The notes under the pieces are model-generated. The model searched no databases. It saw nothing but the letters and a program-made list of their open reading frames with translations, and was not told the DNA's origin. DNA of 64,000 nt, from the NCBI GenBank assembly GCA_036140815.1, contig JAYZXX010000071.1:9561-73560 (forward strand), written 5' to 3'. The stretch comes from Bdellovibrionota bacterium (GTDB lineage Bacteria > Bdellovibrionota > Bdellovibrionia > Bdellovibrionales > UBA840). Positions 6,538 to 55,228 of the stretch are shown here, piece after piece (the stretch's first letter is position 1; the number at the start of each line of letters is the position of its first letter). Made by a program: the position numbers and the translations under genes.

Positions 6538-7317
6538 TTACATGGACTTTAAAACAGTGAACAGGTCATCCATGACTATATCTATACTCGACTTAAATCC
6601 ATAAAGAAAAGCCGGCACAGTTACTATCAAAATTACAAATCCGAGCAAGATATTTACTGGAAAACTTGTAATTAAAATATTGATTTGAGGGACAGCTCGA
6701 CCAATGATGGCCATCGCTATGTTTGAGAAAAACATCGCTGCTAAAACAGGAGCCGAAAGCTTTAGACCTATTTCACATACCAATTGTAAAAGGTGTGCTA
6801 AATCCTTTCCGCTAATCAAAGAAATGGCATCCTCCCCTAAGGGTACCAATTCATAAGACTGCATTAGACCAGAGAAAAACACGTGGTGACCGTTGATAGT
6901 GAGAAAAAATACGGAAACCATTAAAAGTTGGAACTGACTTATAATCGACTCCCTACTACCACTCACTGGATTCAATGTCTGTGCACTGGATAAACCCATA
7001 GAAACACTTACTATCTCACCGCAGACCTGCACCGTCTGGAAAATTAAATGAGTCATGAATACCAAGACCATGCCCACACCAACTTCCTTAGCAACTAACC
7101 AAATAATCATATTTGAATCAATTTGTGTTTCAATTTGCTGCCAGCCTACCAAGGGAAAAATAACCATAGTAACTACTAAAGCAAGAATCACTTTTAAATT
7201 TTTAGGAACATTATTCGTACCAAGTACCGGCCAAAGCCCTAGAAAAATACCCATTCGCACCATTACAAGTACGAAGGCCAGGAGTTGTGTTTCATTGTAT
7301 TGAAACATATTTCCCAA
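6538..7317 (-). CDS. fliR: Flagellar export apparatus protein FliR
   Basis: 259-aa polytopic membrane protein, placed in the fliPQR order. Confidence 0.85.
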   Translation of the reverse strand: MGNMFQYNETQLLAFVLVMVRMGIFLGLWPVLGTNNVPKNLKVILALVVTMVIFPLVGWQQIETQIDSNMIIWLVAKEVGVGMVLVFMTHLIFQTVQVCGEIVSVSMGLSSAQTLNPVSGSRESIISQFQLLMVSVFFLTINGHHVFFSGLMQSYELVPLGEDAISLISGKDLAHLLQLVCEIGLKLSAPVLAAMFFSNIAMAIIGRAVPQINILITSFPVNILLGFVILIVTVPAFLYGFKSSIDIVMDDLFTVLKSM

Positions 7318-7318
7318 A

Positions 7319-7591
7319 CTAGTACCTCACGTATTCGGCGATATTAGACATGAGAGTAATTGTAAATTGTGACAACTCATCAACCATCCAAGGTCCCCCA
7401 AGCGTCAAAACAATACCAACTACGATAATCTTAGGAATGAAGGTTAGTGTCGCTTCGTTAATTTGTGTGATGGCCTGAAATACTGAAACCATCAAACCGA
7501 TGATAAGCGCTGATAATAGCAAAGGCGCTGCCACCATTGCAGTCGTGCGAAGAGCCATTCCGCCTAAATTGTAGATTAGATCTTCACCCAT
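7319..7591 (-). CDS. fliQ: Flagellar export apparatus protein FliQ
   Basis: 90-aa two-TM protein between fliP and fliR, with typical FliQ sequence (LLLSALIIGLMVSVFQAITQINEATLTFIPK). Confidence 0.9.
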   Translation of the reverse strand: MGEDLIYNLGGMALRTTAMVAAPLLLSALIIGLMVSVFQAITQINEATLTFIPKIIVVGIVLTLGGPWMVDELSQFTITLMSNIAEYVRY

Positions 7592-7600
7592 AAATTACCC

Positions 7601-8347
7601 CTATCCGAAACTTTTGATCATGGAACCAACAAGTAGTCCCCAGCCATCTACTAAAACAAATAGCATAATTTTAAATGGAAGTGATACAACCACAGGTGGC
7701 AACATCATCATCCCCATTGCCATCAACACACTTGCAACTACCATATCGATAACTAAAAATGGCAAATAGATAATAAAGCCAATTTGAAAGGCTGTTTTTA
7801 ACTCTGAAATAATAAAAGCTGGAATCAATACTGTAGTAGCCACATCCGCTCTTGTTTTAGGGGCTTCCGCTTTTGAAAGTTTTAAAAACAAAGACAAATC
7901 TGAGTCTCTTGTTTGATTAAACATGAATCTTCGCATCGGCAATAGAGCTGCATCAACAGCTTGTTCTTGATTAATTTTTCCCTCTAAAAAAGGTTGAACT
8001 GCCTTTGAATTTAACTCACTAAAGTGTGGTTGCATTACAAAGAAAGTCAAAAACAGAGCCAAACCAATTAGTAACTGGTTTGGTGGCATTTGTTGTGTTC
8101 CAATGGCTTGTCTTGTAAAAGAAAGTACGATTACGATTCTAGTAAAACCAGTCATCATGATTAAAATGGCTGGTGCCAAGGTTAAAACTGTAATCATAAG
8201 TAATATTTTAATACTACTTACAATGTCTTCGGGTTTATCTAAAGACTGCATACCAATATTGATATTAGGTAAACTTACTCCTTGAGCAAAACTCTCAAGG
8301 CAAAAGCCAAAAGTCAGAATGATGAATAGCAAGATGGACTTTTTCAA
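7601..8347 (-). CDS. fliP: Flagellar export apparatus protein FliP
   Basis: 248 aa with a signal peptide plus conserved FliP stretches (MMTGFTRIVIVLSFTRQAIGTQQMPPNQ, FLVIDMVVASVLMAMGMMMLPP). Confidence 0.95.
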   Translation of the reverse strand: MKKSILLFIILTFGFCLESFAQGVSLPNINIGMQSLDKPEDIVSSIKILLMITVLTLAPAILIMMTGFTRIVIVLSFTRQAIGTQQMPPNQLLIGLALFLTFFVMQPHFSELNSKAVQPFLEGKINQEQAVDAALLPMRRFMFNQTRDSDLSLFLKLSKAEAPKTRADVATTVLIPAFIISELKTAFQIGFIIYLPFLVIDMVVASVLMAMGMMMLPPVVVSLPFKIMLFVLVDGWGLLVGSMIKSFG

Positions 8348-22495: not shown

Positions 22496-23512
22496 CTAAT
22501 CCTTCGGCCTAATAGGACCTTCTGTTTCTTCACTTGCTTGGATTGCTGACTTTAGGCCATCGCGACCTCTTTTAATTACATCTCGAGTTCCATCTACCCC
22601 AGACTTAATAACTCCACCAGTAGTACCAATGCCTTTTTTAAAAACTTTGCCCGCACCAACCCCAACGCCTTCGAGCTTTCCAGCAAAGAAGTCCAACCAG
22701 CGACTTACTTTTAGCTCCATTGATACAAACAACTGGGTAAAACTCCCAATTTCTCTCCCCCAGCCGACACGACCTTCAACTCTCAAATCAGCTCTAGGGT
22801 GTAGGTAGGTGGTAATACCATACCCCATACCATATACAAAAAACTGCTTTGAGCTATCATTCGCAATTCGATTCATCACTCCTGCAAAGATTCTGGCAAT
22901 GGGAGAATTGGTGTCAGGGAAATTTACAAACTGCCACCTTAAACTTAAAACACCATACCAATTGGTTTCCCCATCTCGCCCAGAGCTACCAAGCAAAAAA
23001 TCCATATACTGCTGACAAGATTGAGAGGTGGTCAAAACACAGGTACCAATGTTATAGCCTAAATTTCCGCCAAGCCAATAAAGGTCTTTATCTATATTCA
23101 TTTGGCCCAACTCAAGACCATAGTCCCATTTATGTGGAAGATAGGGATGAGCATTTACGTATGGTTCATAACGCAATTTCTGTCTTAAATAACGAGATTC
23201 GATACGGTTCAATCGTTCAAGACTTAAGGTTCCATCTCTTAAACCTCTCTGAATATAAGCCTCTAGTTTTTTACGATTAATCTTTCTTCGACGCCGTTTT
23301 TTCCTTTTCTTAGGCGGCTCTCCAGTGAATTCCTTTTGAGATATTTCGTTATCAGCTAAAGGCTTTTTTTCTTCATTTCCTTCATCAAAGCTCTCAACAA
23401 CTAGTTCTGACTTATCACTATCGGCATACTCCACTTCATTTGCGTAGCCATTACTTAGGAAAGTGCAAAAAATAATCCCTGAAAATAGACGTATTAAAAA
23501 AGTGTTTCTCAT
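22496..23512 (-). CDS. Secreted hypothetical protein (acidic N-region, polybasic KKRKKRRRRK tract, beta-rich C-domain)
   Basis: Signal peptide (FCTFLSNGYA), with alternating beta-strand-like pattern after residue ~120. Confidence 0.5.
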   Translation of the reverse strand: MRNTFLIRLFSGIIFCTFLSNGYANEVEYADSDKSELVVESFDEGNEEKKPLADNEISQKEFTGEPPKKRKKRRRRKINRKKLEAYIQRGLRDGTLSLERLNRIESRYLRQKLRYEPYVNAHPYLPHKWDYGLELGQMNIDKDLYWLGGNLGYNIGTCVLTTSQSCQQYMDFLLGSSGRDGETNWYGVLSLRWQFVNFPDTNSPIARIFAGVMNRIANDSSKQFFVYGMGYGITTYLHPRADLRVEGRVGWGREIGSFTQLFVSMELKVSRWLDFFAGKLEGVGVGAGKVFKKGIGTTGGVIKSGVDGTRDVIKRGRDGLKSAIQASEETEGPIRPKD

Positions 23513-24696: not shown

Positions 24697-24730
24697 AAAA
24701 AAAAATGCCCCGAGAATTTCTCCCCGGGGC
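24697..24730 (-). terminator. Rho-independent terminator after the porin-like gene
   Basis: GC stem gccccg/cggggc (24707-24712, 24725-24730). It is preceded on + by 9 A (24697-24705), which gives a U-tract on the minus transcript. Confidence 0.6.
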
Positions 24731-24806: not shown

Positions 24807-26186
24807 TCAAAAGTTGATGGCGGCCTTACCTGATATTATAAATGCATTATTGGTAGAATTGGAAGCATTTCCTTCATATGCGCCACCTGGCAATAAAAAT
24901 CCAGTTTCTAAACGCACATGAGTAGAATCATTTGGAAAGTAACTCATTCCCAAATCGATTTCTGTTCCTAAATAATCGTCTGTCGTTGCAGTTCCTACTT
25001 CATTTAGCTTAGCATAGATTAAAGAAGCATCATAATGAAAGCGATCAGAACTTTTGTAAGTAAGCTTTGGGGCGATGAATAGAGTATTACCGATATAATC
25101 TGTATCTACACTACTACTCGAAGCACCTCCAATGGCACTGTTATTTAGGTCTAGAGATGAATTCCCCATCTTGTGGTTAAACAATAGGTAGGCTACATCA
25201 AGGTTACGATCGAATAAAAAACCTTCATAATTATTAGAATTGGGATCATCGCCCGTTGCATAACCTATACGTCCATCAAAATGAAAGTCCGTAGCAAAAT
25301 CAAAAGTAAAATTAGCTAGAAAACCAGAGGCCTCAAAACTTACTGGAGCTCCCGACTTTACAACCCCTGTGTCTCCAGAAAGAAAACCTGCTTCCAGTTC
25401 TAAATCAAAACCTGTGTATGCTTGTTTCAGATAAACGTTAATTTGTTCAGGACTGTAGCCACTTGTAGGAGTTCCACCAAAAACGGTTCCAGTGTCATCA
25501 ATTTTATCTCCACTAGTGGTTTTCTCATAGTATAAGCCTAAATTTAAACCTGAATCTGGATTTAAATACTCGTAATGGAAAGTTAGAATATTCACATCCG
25601 CTTTATCTACAATTGAGCCTTCAGACTTCTTACCATAGTAGGGAGTAATCATGTGGTTACCCATTAAGATCTTCCAACCAATCACATCTTGAGTATCCAT
25701 CCAGTGATCAAAATCGTTGATACCAGCGTTATGAGTTAAGCCCATCCCAAAATGCTTTGGCGTTCTACCAAAAATGAAAGCTCCATTTTCTTGTAACCAA
25801 GTTAGATAAAGTTGAGTTGCCGCAACAGTTTCCACTCCCATACTTTCTGCAATCACAGAACTGTCATCAAAGCTAACACTAGAAGTGGCTTCCGAATTTG
25901 AAGGGTTTCCTAAAAAGGCACCCACTTGGTTAGTTTGTACCCCATTGTTTGCATTGTTGAAAACGTCAAATCTTGCGCGAACAATGATGTCGTCTTTAAC
26001 GATGATTTTGGGAGTAAGAGCTAGATGATGTAAAAGAAAGTTTTTTTCTTCGCCATCAAGGTCGTAATTTCGAATATCAGTTGCTTCTAGGCGATAGTAA
26101 CCATTCCAAGAAACACTAGTAGCAGACGCGTTTGCAGCCATTAACAAACAACTCAAAACATATAGGCTAAGTAATTTTAATCGCAT
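24807..26186 (-). CDS. Outer-membrane beta-barrel (porin-like) protein
   Basis: Signal peptide ending ANASA, many alternating Y/G/D-rich strands, and C-terminal ...AAINF. Confidence 0.55.
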   Translation of the reverse strand: MRLKLLSLYVLSCLLMAANASATSVSWNGYYRLEATDIRNYDLDGEEKNFLLHHLALTPKIIVKDDIIVRARFDVFNNANNGVQTNQVGAFLGNPSNSEATSSVSFDDSSVIAESMGVETVAATQLYLTWLQENGAFIFGRTPKHFGMGLTHNAGINDFDHWMDTQDVIGWKILMGNHMITPYYGKKSEGSIVDKADVNILTFHYEYLNPDSGLNLGLYYEKTTSGDKIDDTGTVFGGTPTSGYSPEQINVYLKQAYTGFDLELEAGFLSGDTGVVKSGAPVSFEASGFLANFTFDFATDFHFDGRIGYATGDDPNSNNYEGFLFDRNLDVAYLLFNHKMGNSSLDLNNSAIGGASSSSVDTDYIGNTLFIAPKLTYKSSDRFHYDASLIYAKLNEVGTATTDDYLGTEIDLGMSYFPNDSTHVRLETGFLLPGGAYEGNASNSTNNAFIISGKAAINF

Positions 26187-26277: not shown

Positions 26278-27189
26278 CTAACTAATCACTCCAATGATGT
26301 CAGTCTCACTAACTACAACCAAGTCGCGACCTTCGGCTTGAATTACATTTCCTGCATATTCGTTAAACAAAACTTTATCGCCAACCTTTACATCTAAAGG
26401 CAAAACTTTGCCTTTTTTCTTCAAAGCGCCTTTTCCTATAGCAAGAACTTCTGCTTTGTCTCTTTTTTGAGGAGCACTATCGATTAAAATCAAACCAGAA
26501 TCTGTCGTTTCTTTTAATGGCTCTAGTTCTAACAATACCTTATCATACAATGGAGCTAAATATTTGCTCCAATCAACACTTGGCTTGGATGCATTTACTG
26601 GAGCCTTAGCTGCTTTTTTCACAGCAGCTGTCGTTTTTGCGGTAGGCTTCTTGGCCTTCTGAGTTTTCGGTGCTGGTTTCGAAACTTTTGCTTTTTTAGT
26701 CGGAACTTTCTTTGAAACTGCTTTTTTGGTAGCTTTTTTCGCAACTTTTTTCTTTGTTGCTTTCTTTGTCGCCGTTTTCTTAGTCACCTTTTTCTTCGCA
26801 ACCTTCTTTTTTGCAGCTTTCTTGGTCACTTTTTTCTTTGAGACTTTAGGAGCCACCTTTTTTTTAGTAGCTTTTTTCTTAATCGGCTTTTTTGCGGCCT
26901 TCTTTTTAGTTACTTTTTTTGCAGCATTCTTTTTTACTGCTTTCTTCGCCACTTTCTTTTTAGTAGCTTTTTTTGCAACTTTTTTCTTTGTAGCCTTCTT
27001 AACCACTTTCTTTTTAGTCACCTTTTTTGCAGTTTTCTTTTTAACCGCCTTCTTCGCTACCTTCTTTTTGGCAGCTTTTTTTGCAACTTTTTTCTTTGTA
27101 ACTTTCTTAGCCACTTTCTTTGCAGCTTTTTTCTTAGTCGCCTTCTTTGCTGTAGGCTTTTTAGCTAATTTCTTCTTTTTCTTTGCCAT
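26278..27189 (-). CDS. Fusion protein: ~210-aa Lys/Ala-rich histone-H1-like repeat region plus a C-terminal GroES (Cpn10)-fold domain
   Basis: Start moved to the internal ATG at 27189 (AGGAG 5 nt upstream; the ORF-track start at 27246 lacks an RBS). The last 93 aa align by eye with E. coli GroES (PLYDKVLL.., ETTDSGLILIDS.., EVLAIGKG, PLDVKVGDKVLFNEY, ETDIIGVI). Confidence 0.75.
   Translation of the reverse strand: MAKKKKKLAKKPTAKKATKKKAAKKVAKKVTKKKVAKKAAKKKVAKKAVKKKTAKKVTKKKVVKKATKKKVAKKATKKKVAKKAVKKNAAKKVTKKKAAKKPIKKKATKKKVAPKVSKKKVTKKAAKKKVAKKKVTKKTATKKATKKKVAKKATKKAVSKKVPTKKAKVSKPAPKTQKAKKPTAKTTAAVKKAAKAPVNASKPSVDWSKYLAPLYDKVLLELEPLKETTDSGLILIDSAPQKRDKAEVLAIGKGALKKKGKVLPLDVKVGDKVLFNEYAGNVIQAEGRDLVVVSETDIIGVIS
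26620..27186. repeat. Degenerate short tandem repeats encoding the KKxxAKK tail
   Basis: Reiterated gcaacttttttctttgt / agccttcttt-type units on the + strand. They also create a spurious 189-aa antisense ORF. Confidence 0.8.
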
Positions 27190-27468
27190 GACAAACTCCT
27201 GTTTACAAAACCGACTATATGAAACTAAAACACAGCTCAGTGTCAAGCTGCTTCGGGCCTATCCCTTTCGGTTTACACACTATAGCAGAGGATAGATACT
27301 TTAAAAAATAAGTGAATAACATTGAAAGCCTATTCGAAAATCAAAAATTCTCAAGCCCGTTTGTATTCTCCCCTAAAGTAAAGCGGGTAAAGAACCAAAA
27401 CAGAAAATTTGAATTCATTCTCATGCAAATGCATGACTCCATCATTTCTTAGCATTAGGATAGCAAGC

Positions 27469-29784
27469 ATGAGTTCAGGAAAAACAAAAATCAAAAAACT
27501 AAAAGCCGTTTTATTAACCTTCGTAGCTTTAGGACTTGCAGGCATGTTCATTCTAGCTAGCTGGACGATTCACCTCAATCAAGTCATTAATCAAGCCCTT
27601 CAAGAAAGAACTCTAACACCAACTCAAGAATTCTTTGCATTGGGTAATCAAGTTTTTTTAGGACAAAAAATTCGCATCGAAAGCCTATTGAGCGACTTAG
27701 AAGTTTATCGCTTAAAGCTTAGCAAAACCGGTGTATTGCTTGATGGAGAGTTACGTCTTCTAAAAAAAGACCAATGCCAGGCACGCTTACCTAATGTAGA
27801 GAAAGAATTTGTCCACTGCTTAGAGCTTAATTTCCGTAATAATTTCGTGGAAAACCCACAATCCCATATTCTGATAGGATGGGAAAATGCAGATGTCATT
27901 AATCATATTGAAAACCTAAACAATCAGGAAGAAGAAATTGTTGCAGACTTTCCACCAATACGTTTTGCTCAGTACATCGGTGACAAATCAATCTTAAGAA
28001 GAAATATGGAACTAGGAGAGTTTCCAGCCATTTGTTTAAACTCTGTCTTGGCCATCGAAGACCCTGGTTTTTTGGAACATCAAGGTTTTAGCTTTCGCAG
28101 TATTGCCAGAGCCATTATAAAGAACATTCAAGCCGGCCGTAAAGCGCAAGGCGGAAGTACGATCACCCAACAATTGGTGAAAAACTATTTTTTAACTCAT
28201 CAAAAAACCTACACTCGAAAGCTCAAAGAGCTCATTATGGCGGTGCTCTTAGAAATTCGCTCGAGCAAAGACAATATTCTCCAAGCCTATCTAAATGAAA
28301 TTTACATGGCTCAAAATGGAGTTTTTGAAGTTCGAGGTTTTGCCGCTGCCAGTGAACACTATTTCGCAAAGGAAGTGGAAAAAATAAATACCGCAGAATG
28401 CGCCTTATTGGCTGCTATTTTAAATAGTCCCGGTAGATACAATCCTTTTAAACATCCCGACAATGCCAAAGCTCGTCGAAGTTTGGTGCTAAGCAAATTA
28501 AAAGAAGAAGGCATTTTAAATGATAAGGAGTTTGAAAAATGGGATAGTTATCCCCTGCCAAGCAAGCAAAGTGTTGTTCGACTGGATCCAGCCCCCTATT
28601 TTTTGGATGCCGTTCGTGATGAAATGCAAAATTTAAAAATTGATACGGGCAAAAACCTAAAAATTGTCACTAGCTTAAATTTAAATGCTCAATCCGCGGC
28701 AAGAAAAGCTCTAAAAAGTGGATTAAATAATTTAGAAAAATGGCGCAAAAACTTAAAAAAGAATGTGGAAGAAGGAAAAAAACTTCAAGGAGCCATTTTA
28801 AGCGTAGATCCTTTAAATTCCTATGTTAGTGCAATGGTGGGAGGACGTGATTATCGAACTGCGCCATTTAATAGGGCTTTGCGAGCGAAAAGACAAGTCG
28901 GTTCAATCATGAAGCCTTTTGTTTATCTTAGTGCTCTAGAGAGTTTTCGCCCAGATACCAATGAGTTTTATACCCCTATTACTGAATTACCCGATGAAAA
29001 AATAACCTATGACTATGATAATCAGTCGTGGACTCCAAAAAACTACGACAAAAAATTTCGCGGTAAAGTCCCATTATACTATGCTTTAAAAAACTCATTA
29101 AACGCACCTACGGCGAATCTTGGAATCGAAAGTGGACTAGATAATATCGTAGATGTTGCCTATCGCCTTGGGGTAAGATCAAAACTTTCACCTTATCCTT
29201 CACTGACTCTCGGTGCCTACGAACTTCATCCTGTAGAGGTATTGCAAGCTTATGCTGCCTTGGCTCGCTTTGGTGAGATTCGAGATTTAAAGTTTGTAGT
29301 TCAAGTATATGATTCTGAAAATCAAATGATCTACAAAGCAGAAAATAATCCTAAACAGGTGATAGCCAAAGAAAATGCTGCTGTTTTAGTTGGGATGCTA
29401 AAGCAAACCATCGAGACTGGTTCAGGCCAAGTAGTTCGAAGGCTTGGCTTTGAAAGACCTGCTGCTGGAAAAACCGGTACTACTAGCGACTACCATGACT
29501 CTTGGTTTGCTGGCTTCACTCCGTATCACGCAGCCATCGTTTGGGTGGGATATGACGACAACACTCCTCATGGCTTAACCGGGGCTAGTGGTGCTGCCCC
29601 TATTTGGGCGAATTATATGAAGGGCATTCAGCATTTATTACCGGATAGAGATTTTTCCTGGCCAGAGGGGGTGAGTGTGGTAGACTTATATCCCTCCGAT
29701 TATAGTACGAACGAAGAACTACGACAATCTGAGGAGTTTAATCAAAAAGTACAATTGATTTTCCGTAAAGGAAACGAACCTTAG
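27469..29784 (+). CDS. Class A penicillin-binding protein (bifunctional transglycosylase/transpeptidase)
   Basis: GT51 motifs EDPGFLEHQGF and GGSTITQQLVKN. Transpeptidase motifs SIMKP (SxxK), SLN and KTGTT. Start set at MSSGKTKIKK before the TM; the ORF-track start at 27409 is also possible. Confidence 0.85.
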   Translation: MSSGKTKIKKLKAVLLTFVALGLAGMFILASWTIHLNQVINQALQERTLTPTQEFFALGNQVFLGQKIRIESLLSDLEVYRLKLSKTGVLLDGELRLLKKDQCQARLPNVEKEFVHCLELNFRNNFVENPQSHILIGWENADVINHIENLNNQEEEIVADFPPIRFAQYIGDKSILRRNMELGEFPAICLNSVLAIEDPGFLEHQGFSFRSIARAIIKNIQAGRKAQGGSTITQQLVKNYFLTHQKTYTRKLKELIMAVLLEIRSSKDNILQAYLNEIYMAQNGVFEVRGFAAASEHYFAKEVEKINTAECALLAAILNSPGRYNPFKHPDNAKARRSLVLSKLKEEGILNDKEFEKWDSYPLPSKQSVVRLDPAPYFLDAVRDEMQNLKIDTGKNLKIVTSLNLNAQSAARKALKSGLNNLEKWRKNLKKNVEEGKKLQGAILSVDPLNSYVSAMVGGRDYRTAPFNRALRAKRQVGSIMKPFVYLSALESFRPDTNEFYTPITELPDEKITYDYDNQSWTPKNYDKKFRGKVPLYYALKNSLNAPTANLGIESGLDNIVDVAYRLGVRSKLSPYPSLTLGAYELHPVEVLQAYAALARFGEIRDLKFVVQVYDSENQMIYKAENNPKQVIAKENAAVLVGMLKQTIETGSGQVVRRLGFERPAAGKTGTTSDYHDSWFAGFTPYHAAIVWVGYDDNTPHGLTGASGAAPIWANYMKGIQHLLPDRDFSWPEGVSVVDLYPSDYSTNEELRQSEEFNQKVQLIFRKGNEP

Positions 29785-51543: not shown

Positions 51544-51966
51544 TTAAGCCAATTTTTCTACAAATTTTTGCCAACTTTGAAGACTTTCCACCAATTCTTC
51601 TTCCATGACATCCGCTAAAGCCAAATAGTCTTCATGTCCATAGGCTTTTAACATGGCGTTTAACGAAGTTTTAAACAAAGGCTCTGTATTCTGCCAAATT
51701 GCATAGTTTTGAACCCAACGCTCTTTTAAGGCCTCATTTTCCTTAGTAATAAACTGTAAAGTGATCATTGTAGACATCAAGGTTTGAATTCCACTAAGAC
51801 ACTCATCAAATTCAAGGCTCAACTGTGACGTAAAACCGAGTCGAAACTCTGTCGCTAAATGATCGATCTCAGTAATAATCTCGGTCACCAATTTTTGAGA
51901 CTGATTTACCACGGTCTTAATTTGCTCTTCTGCGCTTAGATTACCTAATTGTTCGTTCATTGACAT
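51544..51966 (-). CDS. Helical hypothetical protein (last gene of the TPR/GT9 operon)
   Basis: 140-aa ORF overlapping the upstream GT9 gene by 26 nt. No motif recognised. Confidence 0.5.
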   Translation of the reverse strand: MSMNEQLGNLSAEEQIKTVVNQSQKLVTEIITEIDHLATEFRLGFTSQLSLEFDECLSGIQTLMSTMITLQFITKENEALKERWVQNYAIWQNTEPLFKTSLNAMLKAYGHEDYLALADVMEEELVESLQSWQKFVEKLA

Positions 51967-53440
51967 TTGTATTCTCCTCGATATTTATATTATCGCCGGT
52001 ATAGACAGATAAAATTTTCGCTAAAGTTTCATGAATGGCAAAGTAGCTTGCCACAATTTTCTTCTTCTCCATGGGCCCGATTCGTAATTTTTCGGTTTGA
52101 TACCAATCCACAACTGGTGCAAGTTCTGGCACCATCATTAAAAGCTTTTCCACCAACTGATCTACATTTTGCAAAACTCTTTCATTTTCTTCGTTTTGTT
52201 CTTTTCGTAAAATAGCAGTTAACTGCTGAAGGCTAATGGCATTGAGTTCTTGCAGTTGTTTAAATCCTTCAATGCTCTCTAAACGATATGGAACTGGAAA
52301 GTCTTCGCCCAAATAAATCGCACGAATCATTTTCCAGCAAAATAATTGGTGAGGATTGTTTTCAACATATTCATAAGCTGAAAAAGAATCCTTAACGACA
52401 ATCATTTCATCAGATGGAATTTCATTCTCCAGCATACTCTGAATATCTTTACAAATAACATCAGAACCTAAAGCCTCAAAATTACCAACCCCACGGATTC
52501 TACTTCCTGCCGCTTTAGGACCTGTTTCCCAAAACCGAACAAAAGCATTACTTAAATTATAAGTAGCTGTACCGGTTAAGGAAGCGATATGAATGGGAGC
52601 ACTGTCTAAACCCACTAATAAGCTGGCCTCTTTGATGACTGGAAACAAGTCGATCAATTTTGTTTTACCCACTAAAGAAATAATTTTATTTCCTCTAACG
52701 GTTAGCTGGATATTTTTAGCAATATCCTGATCAATTTCAGCGCCAATTAAAACAATCTTATGATCGATTTGCTGACTAAGACGTCGCATCACATTCATCC
52801 ACTTTTCTTGGCTAAGTGATTTCCGCGTAGTGGAGGCCGCCAAGTGTACAACTATATAGTCTTCGTCACCAATATACTCACGAACCAAAGGTGGAATCTG
52901 ATGTGCTACCTCTTTGGTATAATCTTCTTGGGTTAATTCAACCCCGGCAACTTCAGCAAATAAGTCATTCACATGGAATCGATTGTATTTACTCACTCCA
53001 GTTTGCGCATAAAAGTAAGCCGAAGGATCATCATCTATTCTTAAGAAAGCATCTTCGTGCCTTGAGTAGCCTTTTACTTTTGCTCCAGAGTTTTCAATGC
53101 ACTTTACTAAAAAGGAGCTACTCGGAGAAAAACTGAGATTAATAATTTCATCATAGTTCTCTTCTTGTAAATCCATTAGAAAGTCATTCAATTCTTCCAT
53201 TCCCGCTTTTAGACAGTCTTTGTCAGACAGATCATTTTTCAACAAAGCACGAAACACATTCATCATAGGCATTTCAATGACTTGATCTAATTCTGATAGC
53301 CCCTCACATGCACTTGCAAATCGAGGACGAACTAGCATATGAATTTTTGCACCAGGATACTGCCGACGTAAAGCCCTAACTGTTGGCCACGTACTAAAAA
53401 TATCACCGAGTCTTGTTAGTTGTAGAATCAGTATTTTCAT
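51941..53440 (-). CDS. Long glycosyltransferase family 9 (heptosyltransferase-fold) protein with a ~150-aa C-terminal extension
   Basis: GT9 N-terminus MKILILQLTRLGDIFSTWPTVRAL (compare RfaF MKILVIGPSWVGDMMM). Donor-site region LVGKTKLIDLFPVIKEASLLVGLDSAPIHIASLTG resembles the GT9 region of the form GKT..L..........NDSG.MH.A.A. Confidence 0.7.
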   Translation of the reverse strand: MKILILQLTRLGDIFSTWPTVRALRRQYPGAKIHMLVRPRFASACEGLSELDQVIEMPMMNVFRALLKNDLSDKDCLKAGMEELNDFLMDLQEENYDEIINLSFSPSSSFLVKCIENSGAKVKGYSRHEDAFLRIDDDPSAYFYAQTGVSKYNRFHVNDLFAEVAGVELTQEDYTKEVAHQIPPLVREYIGDEDYIVVHLAASTTRKSLSQEKWMNVMRRLSQQIDHKIVLIGAEIDQDIAKNIQLTVRGNKIISLVGKTKLIDLFPVIKEASLLVGLDSAPIHIASLTGTATYNLSNAFVRFWETGPKAAGSRIRGVGNFEALGSDVICKDIQSMLENEIPSDEMIVVKDSFSAYEYVENNPHQLFCWKMIRAIYLGEDFPVPYRLESIEGFKQLQELNAISLQQLTAILRKEQNEENERVLQNVDQLVEKLLMMVPELAPVVDWYQTEKLRIGPMEKKKIVASYFAIHETLAKILSVYTGDNINIEENTNVNERTIR

Positions 53441-53585
53441 TGGGTAACTGCTCCTTCAAAAGCTCTTTCATTAAAAGTAATTTTTGGACCTCAGGACTTA
53501 CTCCTCCCGTCAAAATCTGTTCACGGGCCGTTTTCAAAGTAAGATCAATTAGTCTTTCCATTTTGTTAATAGCATCTTGATTCAT
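53403..53585 (-). CDS. 60-aa hypothetical protein wedged between the two GT9 genes
   Basis: Start overlaps the upstream stop by 4 nt and its end overlaps the downstream start by 38 nt. Coding status is unproven. Confidence 0.35.
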   Translation of the reverse strand: MNQDAINKMERLIDLTLKTAREQILTGGVSPEVQKLLLMKELLKEQLPNENTDSTTNKTR

Positions 53586-55228
53586 AAAATCTCCATATAG
53601 TCGATGCGAATCATTTCACTTAGTTTTCTTTCAATTTTAATTATGTGATTCATATTATCTAAAACTCTACAAGTAGCTGAGTCTTCGTGCTGCCCAGTAT
53701 CCATCTCTCCTTGAATCGCTTCAATGCAGAGCTGTTCAAAGGCAGGCAAATCTTGGTTCAAGCTTCTATTGCGATCAAACCACATATTCACTGCTTGGAA
53801 TATTTTTTCACGATCGCCAATGCTTTTCCGAGTTTTAGCGCTTGGGCTTAAACTACGAATCAACTCTTCTGATTCTAGTTCCATTCCCAGTAAAATAGCT
53901 TCAAACTTTTCTAGAACTGGTCGAAGGTTCTCAGGACTTGTGTATGCTTTCTCGATCAAATACCTGCGAATCACCTGGGCTTCTAAATCAAATCTTTGCC
54001 AATCCTCGACATTGCGCTCTTGTAACACAACTTGCCAAGATGCTTGGTGAAACATACTTTTCAAGTTTTCGGCAAGCGCTCCCTCGCCCAATCGACTGGC
54101 GAACCAGAAATTATTTTGTAAAAACTCGGTTCGATAAAAATTAACATCCTCAAAAAACTCTGACGCCAAAATATCAATGGCCATCCAATTTTTTTCCATA
54201 TGATGAAACATGGTATATCCCACCAAATCCGCCCCTATCATGTCTTGGCAAATAAAACTTGCGTTAGGACACTTCAAGCGATGACTGCATGGGGAACATT
54301 TTAAATTTGCCTGTAATACTAATGAATCTTCAGTATAGCTGCCCGTTTGATTGTATTGGCTAGAGCCTAGGCTTAACTCTAAAACTGGGGTTCTTGATCC
54401 AATGGCTAAATATTTTATAGCTGTATCGGGGGTTACCAAAAGCCTCGAATTGTGTATTAAGGCTTGAGCAGTTACTAAGTCGCAAGCCTTCACTTCTAGC
54501 TTCAAATTGCTTATATCGGATAATTCTGACAGTAGATTAGCTTCTTCGTCAGGGGCACATAGACACAGAATTTTTCGCTTTGAATCAAGTTGTCGATAGT
54601 AGCGAATCACCTCTTTCCATTTTCCAAAGGAAAAAGTCTTCTTCTCCTCATTGCTTGTCATTTGAATACATATGTACTCTTCCTGAGGAATACTAGCTTT
54701 AGTACTTTCCTCCAAATTCAAATCTTCAACAGTTTCAATGGAGTTCAAACCTAGTGCGGATCGATAGATATCAATTAAATGAAAAGCGGATACACCTTCA
54801 AAACTACCAATATCATTTAAGTACTGAATCCAAGGACTTCCATAATCAATGGCTGAATCAAATACTCTTGAGCCTATCACTCGATTTGGCTCCATATCTA
54901 AGGCACTCAAAAAATAGTGGCTTAAATGATTGTGTGTCAGAGATATCACTTTATCAAAATTTTCACTTTCAATTTTTTGTACAAGTTGTTCCAGTTCAAA
55001 AAAATTATTTAAAATATATTGATCTTTTCTCACTGCTACTTGCTGCATTTCCTTACGATCAATGGAAATCCAGTGGTCGACAAAGGGAAATAAACTTTTA
55101 GCAAATTCAAACTCTTTGTAGATTAAAACCTGAACTTCAGCGCCATTTTTTTGTTTATAACTACGAATCAACTCGCGCATCATCAAAAAGTCACCCAAAC
55201 GCATCAAAGAGATAAACAATGTTTTCAT
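53582..55228 (-). CDS. Long GT9-fold protein with a divergent donor site, a four-Cys cluster and a ~190-aa C-terminal extension
   Basis: GT9 N-terminus MKTLFISLMRLGDFLMMRELIRS. The equivalent donor region reads LLVTPDTAIKYLAIGSRTPVLEL (DSG/MH not conserved). Cys cluster CSPCSHRLKCPNASFIC. Confidence 0.65.
   Translation of the reverse strand: MKTLFISLMRLGDFLMMRELIRSYKQKNGAEVQVLIYKEFEFAKSLFPFVDHWISIDRKEMQQVAVRKDQYILNNFFELEQLVQKIESENFDKVISLTHNHLSHYFLSALDMEPNRVIGSRVFDSAIDYGSPWIQYLNDIGSFEGVSAFHLIDIYRSALGLNSIETVEDLNLEESTKASIPQEEYICIQMTSNEEKKTFSFGKWKEVIRYYRQLDSKRKILCLCAPDEEANLLSELSDISNLKLEVKACDLVTAQALIHNSRLLVTPDTAIKYLAIGSRTPVLELSLGSSQYNQTGSYTEDSLVLQANLKCSPCSHRLKCPNASFICQDMIGADLVGYTMFHHMEKNWMAIDILASEFFEDVNFYRTEFLQNNFWFASRLGEGALAENLKSMFHQASWQVVLQERNVEDWQRFDLEAQVIRRYLIEKAYTSPENLRPVLEKFEAILLGMELESEELIRSLSPSAKTRKSIGDREKIFQAVNMWFDRNRSLNQDLPAFEQLCIEAIQGEMDTGQHEDSATCRVLDNMNHIIKIERKLSEMIRIDYMEIL

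Follow-up and report, generated by a model that had tools for sequence, protein, structure and literature searches.

The 64,000 nucleotides (nt) of Bdellovibrionota DNA analyzed here (GenBank assembly GCA_036140815.1, contig JAYZXX010000071.1, positions 9,561 to 73,560; hereafter, the window) contain a gene whose product joins a polycationic N-terminal tail of 208 amino acids (aa) to a complete GroES domain, and we found this architecture to be that of a large family conserved in the Bdellovibrionales. GroES is among the most uniform of proteins, about 95 aa long and encoded with groEL. Here, a whole bacterial order keeps a second GroES with a tail of 45 to 217 residues that is almost purely positive in charge, with a charge-reversed tip of the dome and with a conserved partner gene of its own that likely shares its operon. 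As judged from its sequence, the protein is a divergent paralogue and not the housekeeping GroES. We propose, at what we consider about even chances, that it is a paralogous co-chaperonin of the GroES2 type, namely, a heptameric lid for GroEL whose external polycationic arms would bind polyanions, the likeliest being nucleic acid. The gene has the following features.

26278..27189, minus strand: complete coding sequence (CDS) of the tail-GroES (GroES2-type) protein, 303 codons plus stop, from open reading frame (ORF) translation
27196..27200, minus strand: Shine-Dalgarno sequence AGGAG, 6-nt spacer to the ATG at 27189, read from the sequence
26566..27189, minus strand: polycationic tail, residues 1 to 208, 48% Lys, rich in K/A/V/T, from composition and Lys periodicity
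26860..27121, no strand assigned: tandem DNA repeat in the tail, 108 nt (36 aa), 2.4 copies, 82% matches, from Tandem Repeats Finder
26284..26559, minus strand: Cpn10/GroES domain, residues 211 to 302, from Pfam PF00166, PDB matches and AlphaFold2 (AF2)
26461..26517, minus strand: mobile-loop equivalent, residues 225 to 243, from column-by-column comparison with GroES
26485-26493, minus strand: hydrophobic tripeptide LIL, residues 233 to 235, aligning with E. coli I25-V26-L27
26401..26433, minus strand: roof beta-hairpin equivalent, residues 253 to 263 (KGALKKKGKVL), tip K258 K259, from column comparison

The initial annotation, made by eye from the letters alone, had assigned the C terminus to GroES, and a hidden Markov model (HMM) search agreed with it. 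Pfam PF00166 (Cpn10) matched residues 211 to 302 with 85.1 bits (cut-off, 21.1), covering positions 2 to 93 of the 93 in the model. Solved GroES chains aligned to the domain without gaps (PDB matches with E values from 4e-19 to 5e-15), among them E. coli GroES (1AON chain O), of which residues 3 to 95 were covered at an E value of 5e-15. The domain contains PLDVKVGDKVLF. The two details picked out by eye, the LIL at the position of the mobile-loop tripeptide and the PLDVKVGD core, were both recovered in the structural and column alignments; besides these and the full-length fold, canonical GroES and the window protein share the Tyr of the YxG motif. In an AF2 monomer prediction (input alignment of 77 sequences), the predicted local distance difference test score (pLDDT) of the domain was 84 to 95 outside the mobile loop and lower within it. 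Finally, we compared the gene with that of a sister species (L018/L001), whose DNA is about 82 to 88% identical to the window. Of the last 101 codons, 47 differed from L018, 46 of them synonymously and 1 non-synonymously; judged from these codons, the domain is under strong purifying selection.

A column-by-column comparison of 50 tail-bearing family members with 72 canonical GroES sequences and E. coli GroES showed which positions have been kept (E. coli numbering). These are P5, L6, D8, R9, T21, G23, G24, the tripeptide, V40, G44 and G46, followed by G52, P56, D58, G62, D63 and E87. In the mobile loop, T21 and G23-G24 are thus accompanied by L or I at position 25 (100%), a mostly hydrophobic residue at position 26 and I or L at position 27 (100%). 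By contrast, R14 is relaxed in the family, and the window protein has lost both this conserved arginine and the E33-K34-P35 flank of the canonical loop. The roof tip is different as well. At positions 50/51, canonical GroES carries E or D (99%) and D or N, i.e., acidic or amide residues, whereas the tail-bearing family has K at both (88% and 96%, respectively). The family marks are present in the window protein as K258-K259-G260 and Y215 (D or Y at the position of E. coli H7), and its Cpn10 domain, with a net charge of -1, is ordinary apart from the roof. The GroES of Elusimicrobiaceae (L005, L006, L007, L013, L016, L020 and L070) also has a K-K-G roof tip, GKGALNKKGERLPMDV; it has no tail, is 97 aa long where the gene is complete and has groEL adjacent. 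A charge-reversed roof thus occurs outside the tail-bearing family as well.

In free GroES, the mobile loop is disordered. Since its hydrophobic core is nevertheless conserved in this family, the conservation would be best explained by continued binding to GroEL, and we lean toward the view that the Cpn10 domain retains the capacity to cap the chaperonin.

The window protein also differs from canonical GroES in the 208-aa polycationic extension at its N terminus. It consists of 99 K, 42 A, 24 V, 20 T and 9 P residues, with no R and 1 acidic residue, and has a net charge of +98; the 303-aa product as a whole has a mass of 32.8 kDa and an isoelectric point of 10.7. As first annotated, the protein thus starts at a ribosome-binding-site-supported ATG at 27189, is highly basic through its Lys repeats and lacks a signal peptide, there being no hydrophobic signal-peptide core; the AGGAG is also present at the same spacing in the sister species (L018/L001). 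The lysines are spaced with a 9-residue period in a 4+5 pattern (autocorrelation of 0.66 at lag 9), the repeat having the form KKxx/KKKxx, where x is A, V or T, and Tandem Repeats Finder reported sub-periods of 27 and 54 nt in the DNA repeat. The charge density is by far the highest in the window, with a best 40-residue net charge of 0.57 compared to at most 0.38 in the other ORFs of at least 80 aa. The tail lysine codons were 43% AAG, compared to 27% in five other genes of the window, and the longest A-run was 8, which is consistent with an avoidance of long poly(A) tracts in a repeat otherwise liable to slippage.

The tail had also been called histone-H1-like. This holds for its composition and not for its family membership, as the tail alone matched 0 Pfam families at E values up to 10, HC2 included. 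A precomputed Pfam HC2 (PF07382) match was present on the tail in about 21 of the 120 relatives listed, and these matches probably reflect composition. AF2 drew a single long helix over residues 15 to 89 (means of 10-residue blocks, pLDDT 60 to 92, with the peak at residues 31 to 50) and gave a pLDDT of about 50 for residues 90 to 210. On such a helix, the 4+5 Lys spacing would set A, V and T on one face. The C-terminal domain of H1 becomes helical on polyanion binding, and the predicted helix may be read likewise as folding on such binding; this is weak evidence, because the alignment is of low complexity. The tail is thus predicted to be largely disordered, and by the sequence comparisons described below, it evolves fast while its composition stays constant.

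Long disordered Lys/Ala-rich repeats prone to repeat-number variation are a trait that the tail would have in common with AlgP/PhaF and with Chlamydia Hc1/Hc2. In AlgP and PhaF, H1-like Lys/Ala/Pro tails attach polyphosphate or polyhydroxyalkanoate granules to DNA (PMC9239181). Unlike these, the window tail is N-terminal rather than C-terminal, contains 4% proline (9/208) and follows a KKxxKKKxx rather than a KPAA pattern. It also differs from H1-like tails in being attached to a ring-forming chaperonin cofactor.

The fusion is not an assembly or frameshift artifact. Two independent Logan assemblies, from different sequencing runs, contain the locus. The first (L077) matches the window with 100% identity over 4,113 nt, a stretch that takes in the entire CDS. 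The second (L076) comes from a strain that is 99.5% identical and carries 15 additional nt in frame (KKKVV), which gives a 308-aa product with one tail substitution and an identical Cpn10 domain. Furthermore, an NCBI metagenome-assembled genome from Bdellovibrionota encodes the same protein (100% identity) as the gene downstream, which specifies an outer-membrane protein (OMP). Together with the tails of the related loci (see below), these data uphold the single-gene fusion without frameshift that had been described from the window.

Very probably, the tail is also translated as part of the fusion, making the protein a member of the GroES2 family. The window protein has no Met beyond residue 1 and no usable start codon near residue 211. 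Only 14 of 59 Bdellovibrionales genomes contain an in-frame ATG within 25 codons of the Cpn10 start, the other 45 having none, and in B. bacteriovorus Bd16, a product begun at the first ATG would lack part of the Cpn10 fold. The upstream start context, on the other hand, is conserved, as MAKKK in most lineages and, in the B. bacteriovorus clade, as VAKKK with a GTG start, and conservation is higher over the first 20 or so residues than in the remainder of the tail. Compared to L018, the tail is identical at 129 of 178 aligned columns (72%) and has three indels, of 8, 1 and 21 aa, all of which are in frame. Open frames as such are uninformative in AAR repeats. Indeed, a 189-aa antisense ORF (window 26726-27295, plus strand) runs through the same DNA as Phe/Ala/Val repeats, which mirror those of Lys; almost certainly, this ORF is an artifact of low complexity and no gene. 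Acidic residues are excluded from the read frame only, and this in every lineage.

Internal starts have been called for several genes of the family, namely, for the 153-aa P0001 (L001 4189-5074), the 112-aa P0355 and the 117-aa Bd3349 of B. bacteriovorus HD100. In each of the three, the conserved MAKKK/VAKKK start is reached when the ORF is followed upstream. The lengths given in public annotations of the family thus disagree, and as a practical matter, gene callers truncate the GroES2-type gene in several assemblies. We considered P0001, the closest database protein, as a short-tailed sister and rejected it, since the L001 ORF reaches the same MAKKKKK start and encodes 273 aa; the start of P0001 is a gene caller's choice of an internal GTG.

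The distribution of the family was assessed in two ways. First, the full protein served as the query in an exhaustive HMMER search of 1.84 billion cluster representatives, and the best 150 were classified. A basic N-terminal tail followed by a single C-terminal Cpn10 domain was present in 121 of these, 18 were tandem Cpn10 proteins and 11 were plain or otherwise extended GroES. In this set, the family tails were 45 to 217 aa long (median, 98), with a mean of 34% K+R and 1.6% D+E, and one tail, of 217 aa, was longer than the 208 aa of the window. Second, one genome per GTDB species was scanned with a degenerate DNA motif for the roof region ([VI]G[RK]GxxxKKGxxxP[LMV]DVxxG[DE]), which samples part of the family. 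This gave 74 loci, 67 of the Bdellovibrionales type, including complete genomes of cultured Bdellovibrio strains, and 7 from Elusimicrobiaceae. All 59 Bdellovibrionales loci with a complete 5' side encoded a tail (56 to 180 aa; 27 to 52% K+R; D+E no higher than 4.7%). The window tail exceeds all 59 in length and is among the most Lys-rich, with 48% K+R (two of the 59 reach 52%). As far as sampled, the GroES2-type family is specific to Bdellovibrionales. Two bins labeled otherwise, L014 (Bacillota) and L054 (Proteobacteria), carry Bdellovibrio-type GroES2 and OMP genes in the typical synteny, which suggests mis-binning or outdated taxonomy. The term "orphan," applied to the gene in the initial annotation, is hence correct for the gene context, which lacks groEL, and incorrect for the architecture.

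Nor is the protein without precedent, as that annotation had implied. RefSeq names 186- to 205-aa Bdellovibrio proteins of the same architecture "co-chaperone GroES," and the B. bacteriovorus HD100 orthologue, Bd3349, was studied and named GroES2 by Lambert et al. (2012, BMC Microbiol 12:99; PMC3464611). These authors noted that Bd3349 was annotated as a protein of 224 aa with "lots of repetitive sequence," chose an internal Met that gives a 117-aa product and treated the repeat as a mis-annotation (PMC3464611). The HD100-like locus L067 reproduces both the 224-aa and the 117-aa figures. According to the same study, groES2 mRNA is absent early and appears 2 to 4 h into predation, at septation; heat does not induce the gene, which is de-repressed in a mutant of the sigma factor Bd0743; and the GroEL-contact residues are conserved in Bd3349 (PMC3464611). 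Like the window protein, Bd3349 has a repetitive basic N terminus followed by a Cpn10 domain and is encoded away from groEL, and the B. bacteriovorus loci likewise have an AlgE-like OMP gene downstream and a divergent penicillin-binding protein (PBP) gene upstream. They differ in that the window gene starts with ATG rather than GTG and in that the domains are only about 35 to 40% identical. In full-text literature searches, Lambert 2012 was the sole description of a Lys-rich GroES extension to come up, and no paper was found that treats the tail as genuine. The tail as a conserved translated part, the charge-reversed roof and the fixed AlgE-like partner appear to be new with respect to the literature searched.

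The 2025 quantitative proteome of B. bacteriovorus detected Bd3349 with 17 unique peptides (PMC12546842). We did not retain this number as proof of tail translation, as the 100-aa GroES1 yields 19 and trypsin shreds Lys-rich sequence. The log10 intensities were as follows (PMC12546842).

Bd3349 (GroES2): attack phase, 6.68; 4 h, 7.24
Bd0097 (GroES1): attack phase, 7.05; 4 h, 8.42
Bd0099 (GroEL): attack phase, 9.65; 4 h, 9.87; peak, 10.03 at 3 h

In the mechanism that we propose, the Cpn10 domain would form the usual heptamer, still able to cap GroEL, and the seven tails would radiate outside the folding chamber. Seven tails of 22.5 kDa would sum to about 157 kDa with a charge of about +690, and seven tails of the family median length sum to about 70 kDa. 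The cis cavity of GroEL-GroES holds roughly 60 to 70 kDa. The seven tails would thus exceed its capacity and would have to lie outside. There, they would act on a polyanion by bulk electrostatics, either tethering the chaperonin to nucleic acid (nucleoid or RNA) or helping to condense the latter late in the predatory cycle. Nucleic acid is our tentative choice of target, a reasonable possibility that we favor because expression coincides with the re-compaction of the daughter chromosomes before septation (PMC11318664), because the Lys/Ala-rich tails of AlgP/PhaF tether other bodies to DNA (PMC9239181) and because the basic roof adds a second positive surface. The earlier ideas of a tether to nucleoid, RNA or polyphosphate and of a heptameric polycationic brush are compatible with all of these findings.

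Other Cpn10 folds have left the stand-alone 10-kDa format and still cap a chaperonin, namely, chloroplast Cpn20, chains of which were among the PDB matches of the window domain, and phage T4 gp31. Cpn20 duplicates the fold and gp31 enlarges its loops, but neither adds a low-complexity polycation, unlike the window protein. Lambert et al. saw no special similarity of GroES2 to gp31 (PMC3464611).

A narrower version of this proposal, which we regard as on the unlikely side, is that the GroES2 heptamer is a seven-armed chromosome-binding polycation, one among the factors that re-compact nucleoids before septation and keep them compact in attack-phase cells. It would then resemble a ring-scaffolded Chlamydia Hc1/Hc2, GroEL could be docked on the nucleoid and chaperonin thereby passed on to every progeny cell, and the charge-reversed roof and the AlgE-like partner would mark a function beyond protein folding. 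Bdellovibrio chromosomes are re-compacted just before septation by factors yet to be named (PMC11318664), and GroES2 is a concrete candidate for this question.

Several observations weigh against a GroEL lid with nucleic-acid-binding arms. The domain scored below the cut-off of all 13 NCBIfam GroES models (the best, NF001533, gave 87.8 bits where 99 are required), and the family is relaxed at the mobile-loop flank E33-K34-P35, which is 96 to 99% conserved in canonical GroES, so that the affinity for GroEL may be altered or lost. The outward course of the N terminus is argued from the capacity of the cavity and from GroES structures. The window tail matches neither HC2 nor any other DNA-binding model in Pfam, and the conserved neighbors of the gene are envelope genes (OMP and PBP), not DNA-related ones. 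Finally, the GroES2 signal at 4 h is roughly 15-fold lower than that of GroES1 and roughly 600-fold lower than that of GroEL (PMC12546842 data). This is low for a bulk nucleoid compactor, although the loss of Lys-rich tails to trypsin may understate it.

The neighborhood of the gene comprises the following features.

24807..26186, minus strand: OMP of 459 aa with a signal peptide, a predicted AlgE-like 18-strand beta-barrel, from synteny, Pfam, AF2 and Foldseek
27409..29784, plus strand: class-A PBP (transglycosylase and transpeptidase), divergent, upstream, from Pfam Transgly and Transpeptidase
24707..24730, minus strand: intrinsic-terminator-like hairpin after the OMP gene, 10 bp, 7 GC, with a T-run

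The initial annotation was right in stating that no groEL follows and that the next gene encodes a porin-like OMP. Indeed, an OMP homologue lies directly downstream on the same strand in 65 of 65 Bdellovibrionales loci with room for it, with a gap that is often 6 to 30 nt (91 nt in the window), and the divergent PBP is upstream in each of the 49 loci with room. Between the tail-GroES and OMP genes, the window has no terminator-like hairpin, and the only one of the stretch follows the OMP gene, which suggests a bicistronic groES2-OMP transcript. As the PBP-groES2-OMP block is also syntenic across the order, co-transcription of groES2 and the OMP gene seems likely from the gene arrangement.

The OMP partner has a signal peptide, a conserved DW(S/T)GxYR at the mature start and a C-terminal Phe. 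Pfam Alginate_exp (PF13372) matches 20 of 30 orthologues (best E value, 3.6e-9), the window protein itself scoring 22.4 bits against a cut-off of 25.2. Its AF2 model (pLDDT, 82.5) has AlgE (3RBH) as the top Foldseek match, with an E value of 2e-18 and a template-modeling score of about 0.6. No alginate-synthesis genes lie beside it in the stretch from about 22.5 to 30.2 kb, the part of the window that was read in detail. The B. bacteriovorus orthologue, Bd3348, is annotated as "uncharacterized."

These neighbors lend themselves to a different explanation, in which the polybasic tail would bind anionic phospholipids and place the GroES ring, with GroEL, at the inner membrane. Such an envelope tether could assist in secretion or in building the envelope, including the AlgE-like barrel that is probably co-transcribed. 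Besides the invariant OMP and PBP genes, the short gaps and the position of the terminator, it is favored by the modest increase of both Bd3348 and Bd3349 at 3 to 4 h (PMC12546842). However, the whole block being syntenic across the order, the adjacency may be inherited gene order, and the tail contains no membrane-inserting hydrophobic element. In addition, we know of no pathway linking GroES to OMP export. We thus consider an envelope tether distinctly unlikely.

To the same extent, we find it improbable that the protein works as a polycation independently of GroEL, the Cpn10 domain serving only as a heptamerization hub, co-chaperonin activity being lost and the arms condensing DNA or organizing polyphosphate as in AlgP. 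The scores below the NCBIfam cut-offs, the relaxed E-K-P flank and the basic roof would all fit this, and so would the gene context, as the family gene is never linked to groEL. In the window, a crude six-frame motif scan of the 64 kb found no groEL, nor was one present in 70 Bdellovibrionales loci, whereas groEL adjoined the plain 97-aa GroES in 7 of 7 Elusimicrobiaceae loci, which served as a control. There was no match to the CIRCE (controlling inverted repeat of chaperone expression) operator with up to 3 mismatches in the 64-kb window either, so that the gene differs from a canonical groES-groEL operon in both respects. However, the tripeptide and the preceding T-x-G-G are kept across the family, and GroEL binding is the sole evident reason for conserving a loop that is disordered in free GroES. 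The expression of the orthologue, which is not heat-induced (PMC3464611), and the ability of AlgP-type tails to localize to polyphosphate (PMC9239181) are again in favor, but the conservation of the GroEL-contact residues in Bd3349 speaks against the loss of co-chaperonin activity (Lambert et al., PMC3464611).

We also give little weight to the idea that the tail has no specific ligand and works as a solubility tag or entropic bristle, as a region for degradation or regulation or by altering the dynamics of the lid. The protein would in that case be an alternative GroEL lid for late-stage substrates, as Lambert et al. proposed (PMC3464611). The wide range of tail lengths (45 to 217 aa), the 72% identity and the indels between sister species whose domains are 100% identical and the expression late in the predatory cycle (PMC3464611) would be in line with this. 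Nevertheless, the composition is tightly held (D+E averaging 1.6% in every lineage, K+R at least 27%), which argues for selection on charge rather than on mere disorder, and with +98 per chain the tail will bind cellular polyanions, whether this is a selected function or not.

Last, it is barely credible that the tail is untranslated and that the real product is a stand-alone GroES of about 100 to 117 aa from an internal codon, as in the 2012 re-annotation of Bd3349: some gene callers do pick internal starts (P0001 and P0355), the HD100-like strain does have a Met 117 aa from the end and AAR repeats are open in several frames, but this is outweighed by the lack of usable starts near the domain, the conserved Shine-Dalgarno sequence and start, the in-frame indels and the exclusion of acidic residues described above.

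With the tail restored, the sensible experiments on GroES2 become different ones, i.e., localization, polyanion binding and nucleoid phenotypes. In a tractable organism such as Bdellovibrio, the experimental path is clear.

Regarding the upstream region, a scan for the sigma-70 consensus gave no promoter at a plausible distance from the tail-GroES gene, and no Rfam family matched the tail-GroES region. A hairpin at 27232-27251, upstream of the gene, was left uninterpreted, as it is not kept in L018. Elsewhere in the window, a 548-aa ORF at 53582-55228 was considered as GroEL because of its size and was rejected, as it encodes a family-9 glycosyltransferase. Together with an adjacent paralogue of 499 aa, it makes up a pair of family-9 (heptosyltransferase-like) enzymes at 51941-55228 on the minus strand. 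Finally, the minus strand at 22496-23512 contains a 338-aa ORF with no Pfam match that has a KKRKKRRRRK patch near residue 67, and an ORF of the same length (338 aa) is present in the sister genome L001 at 6922-7938.

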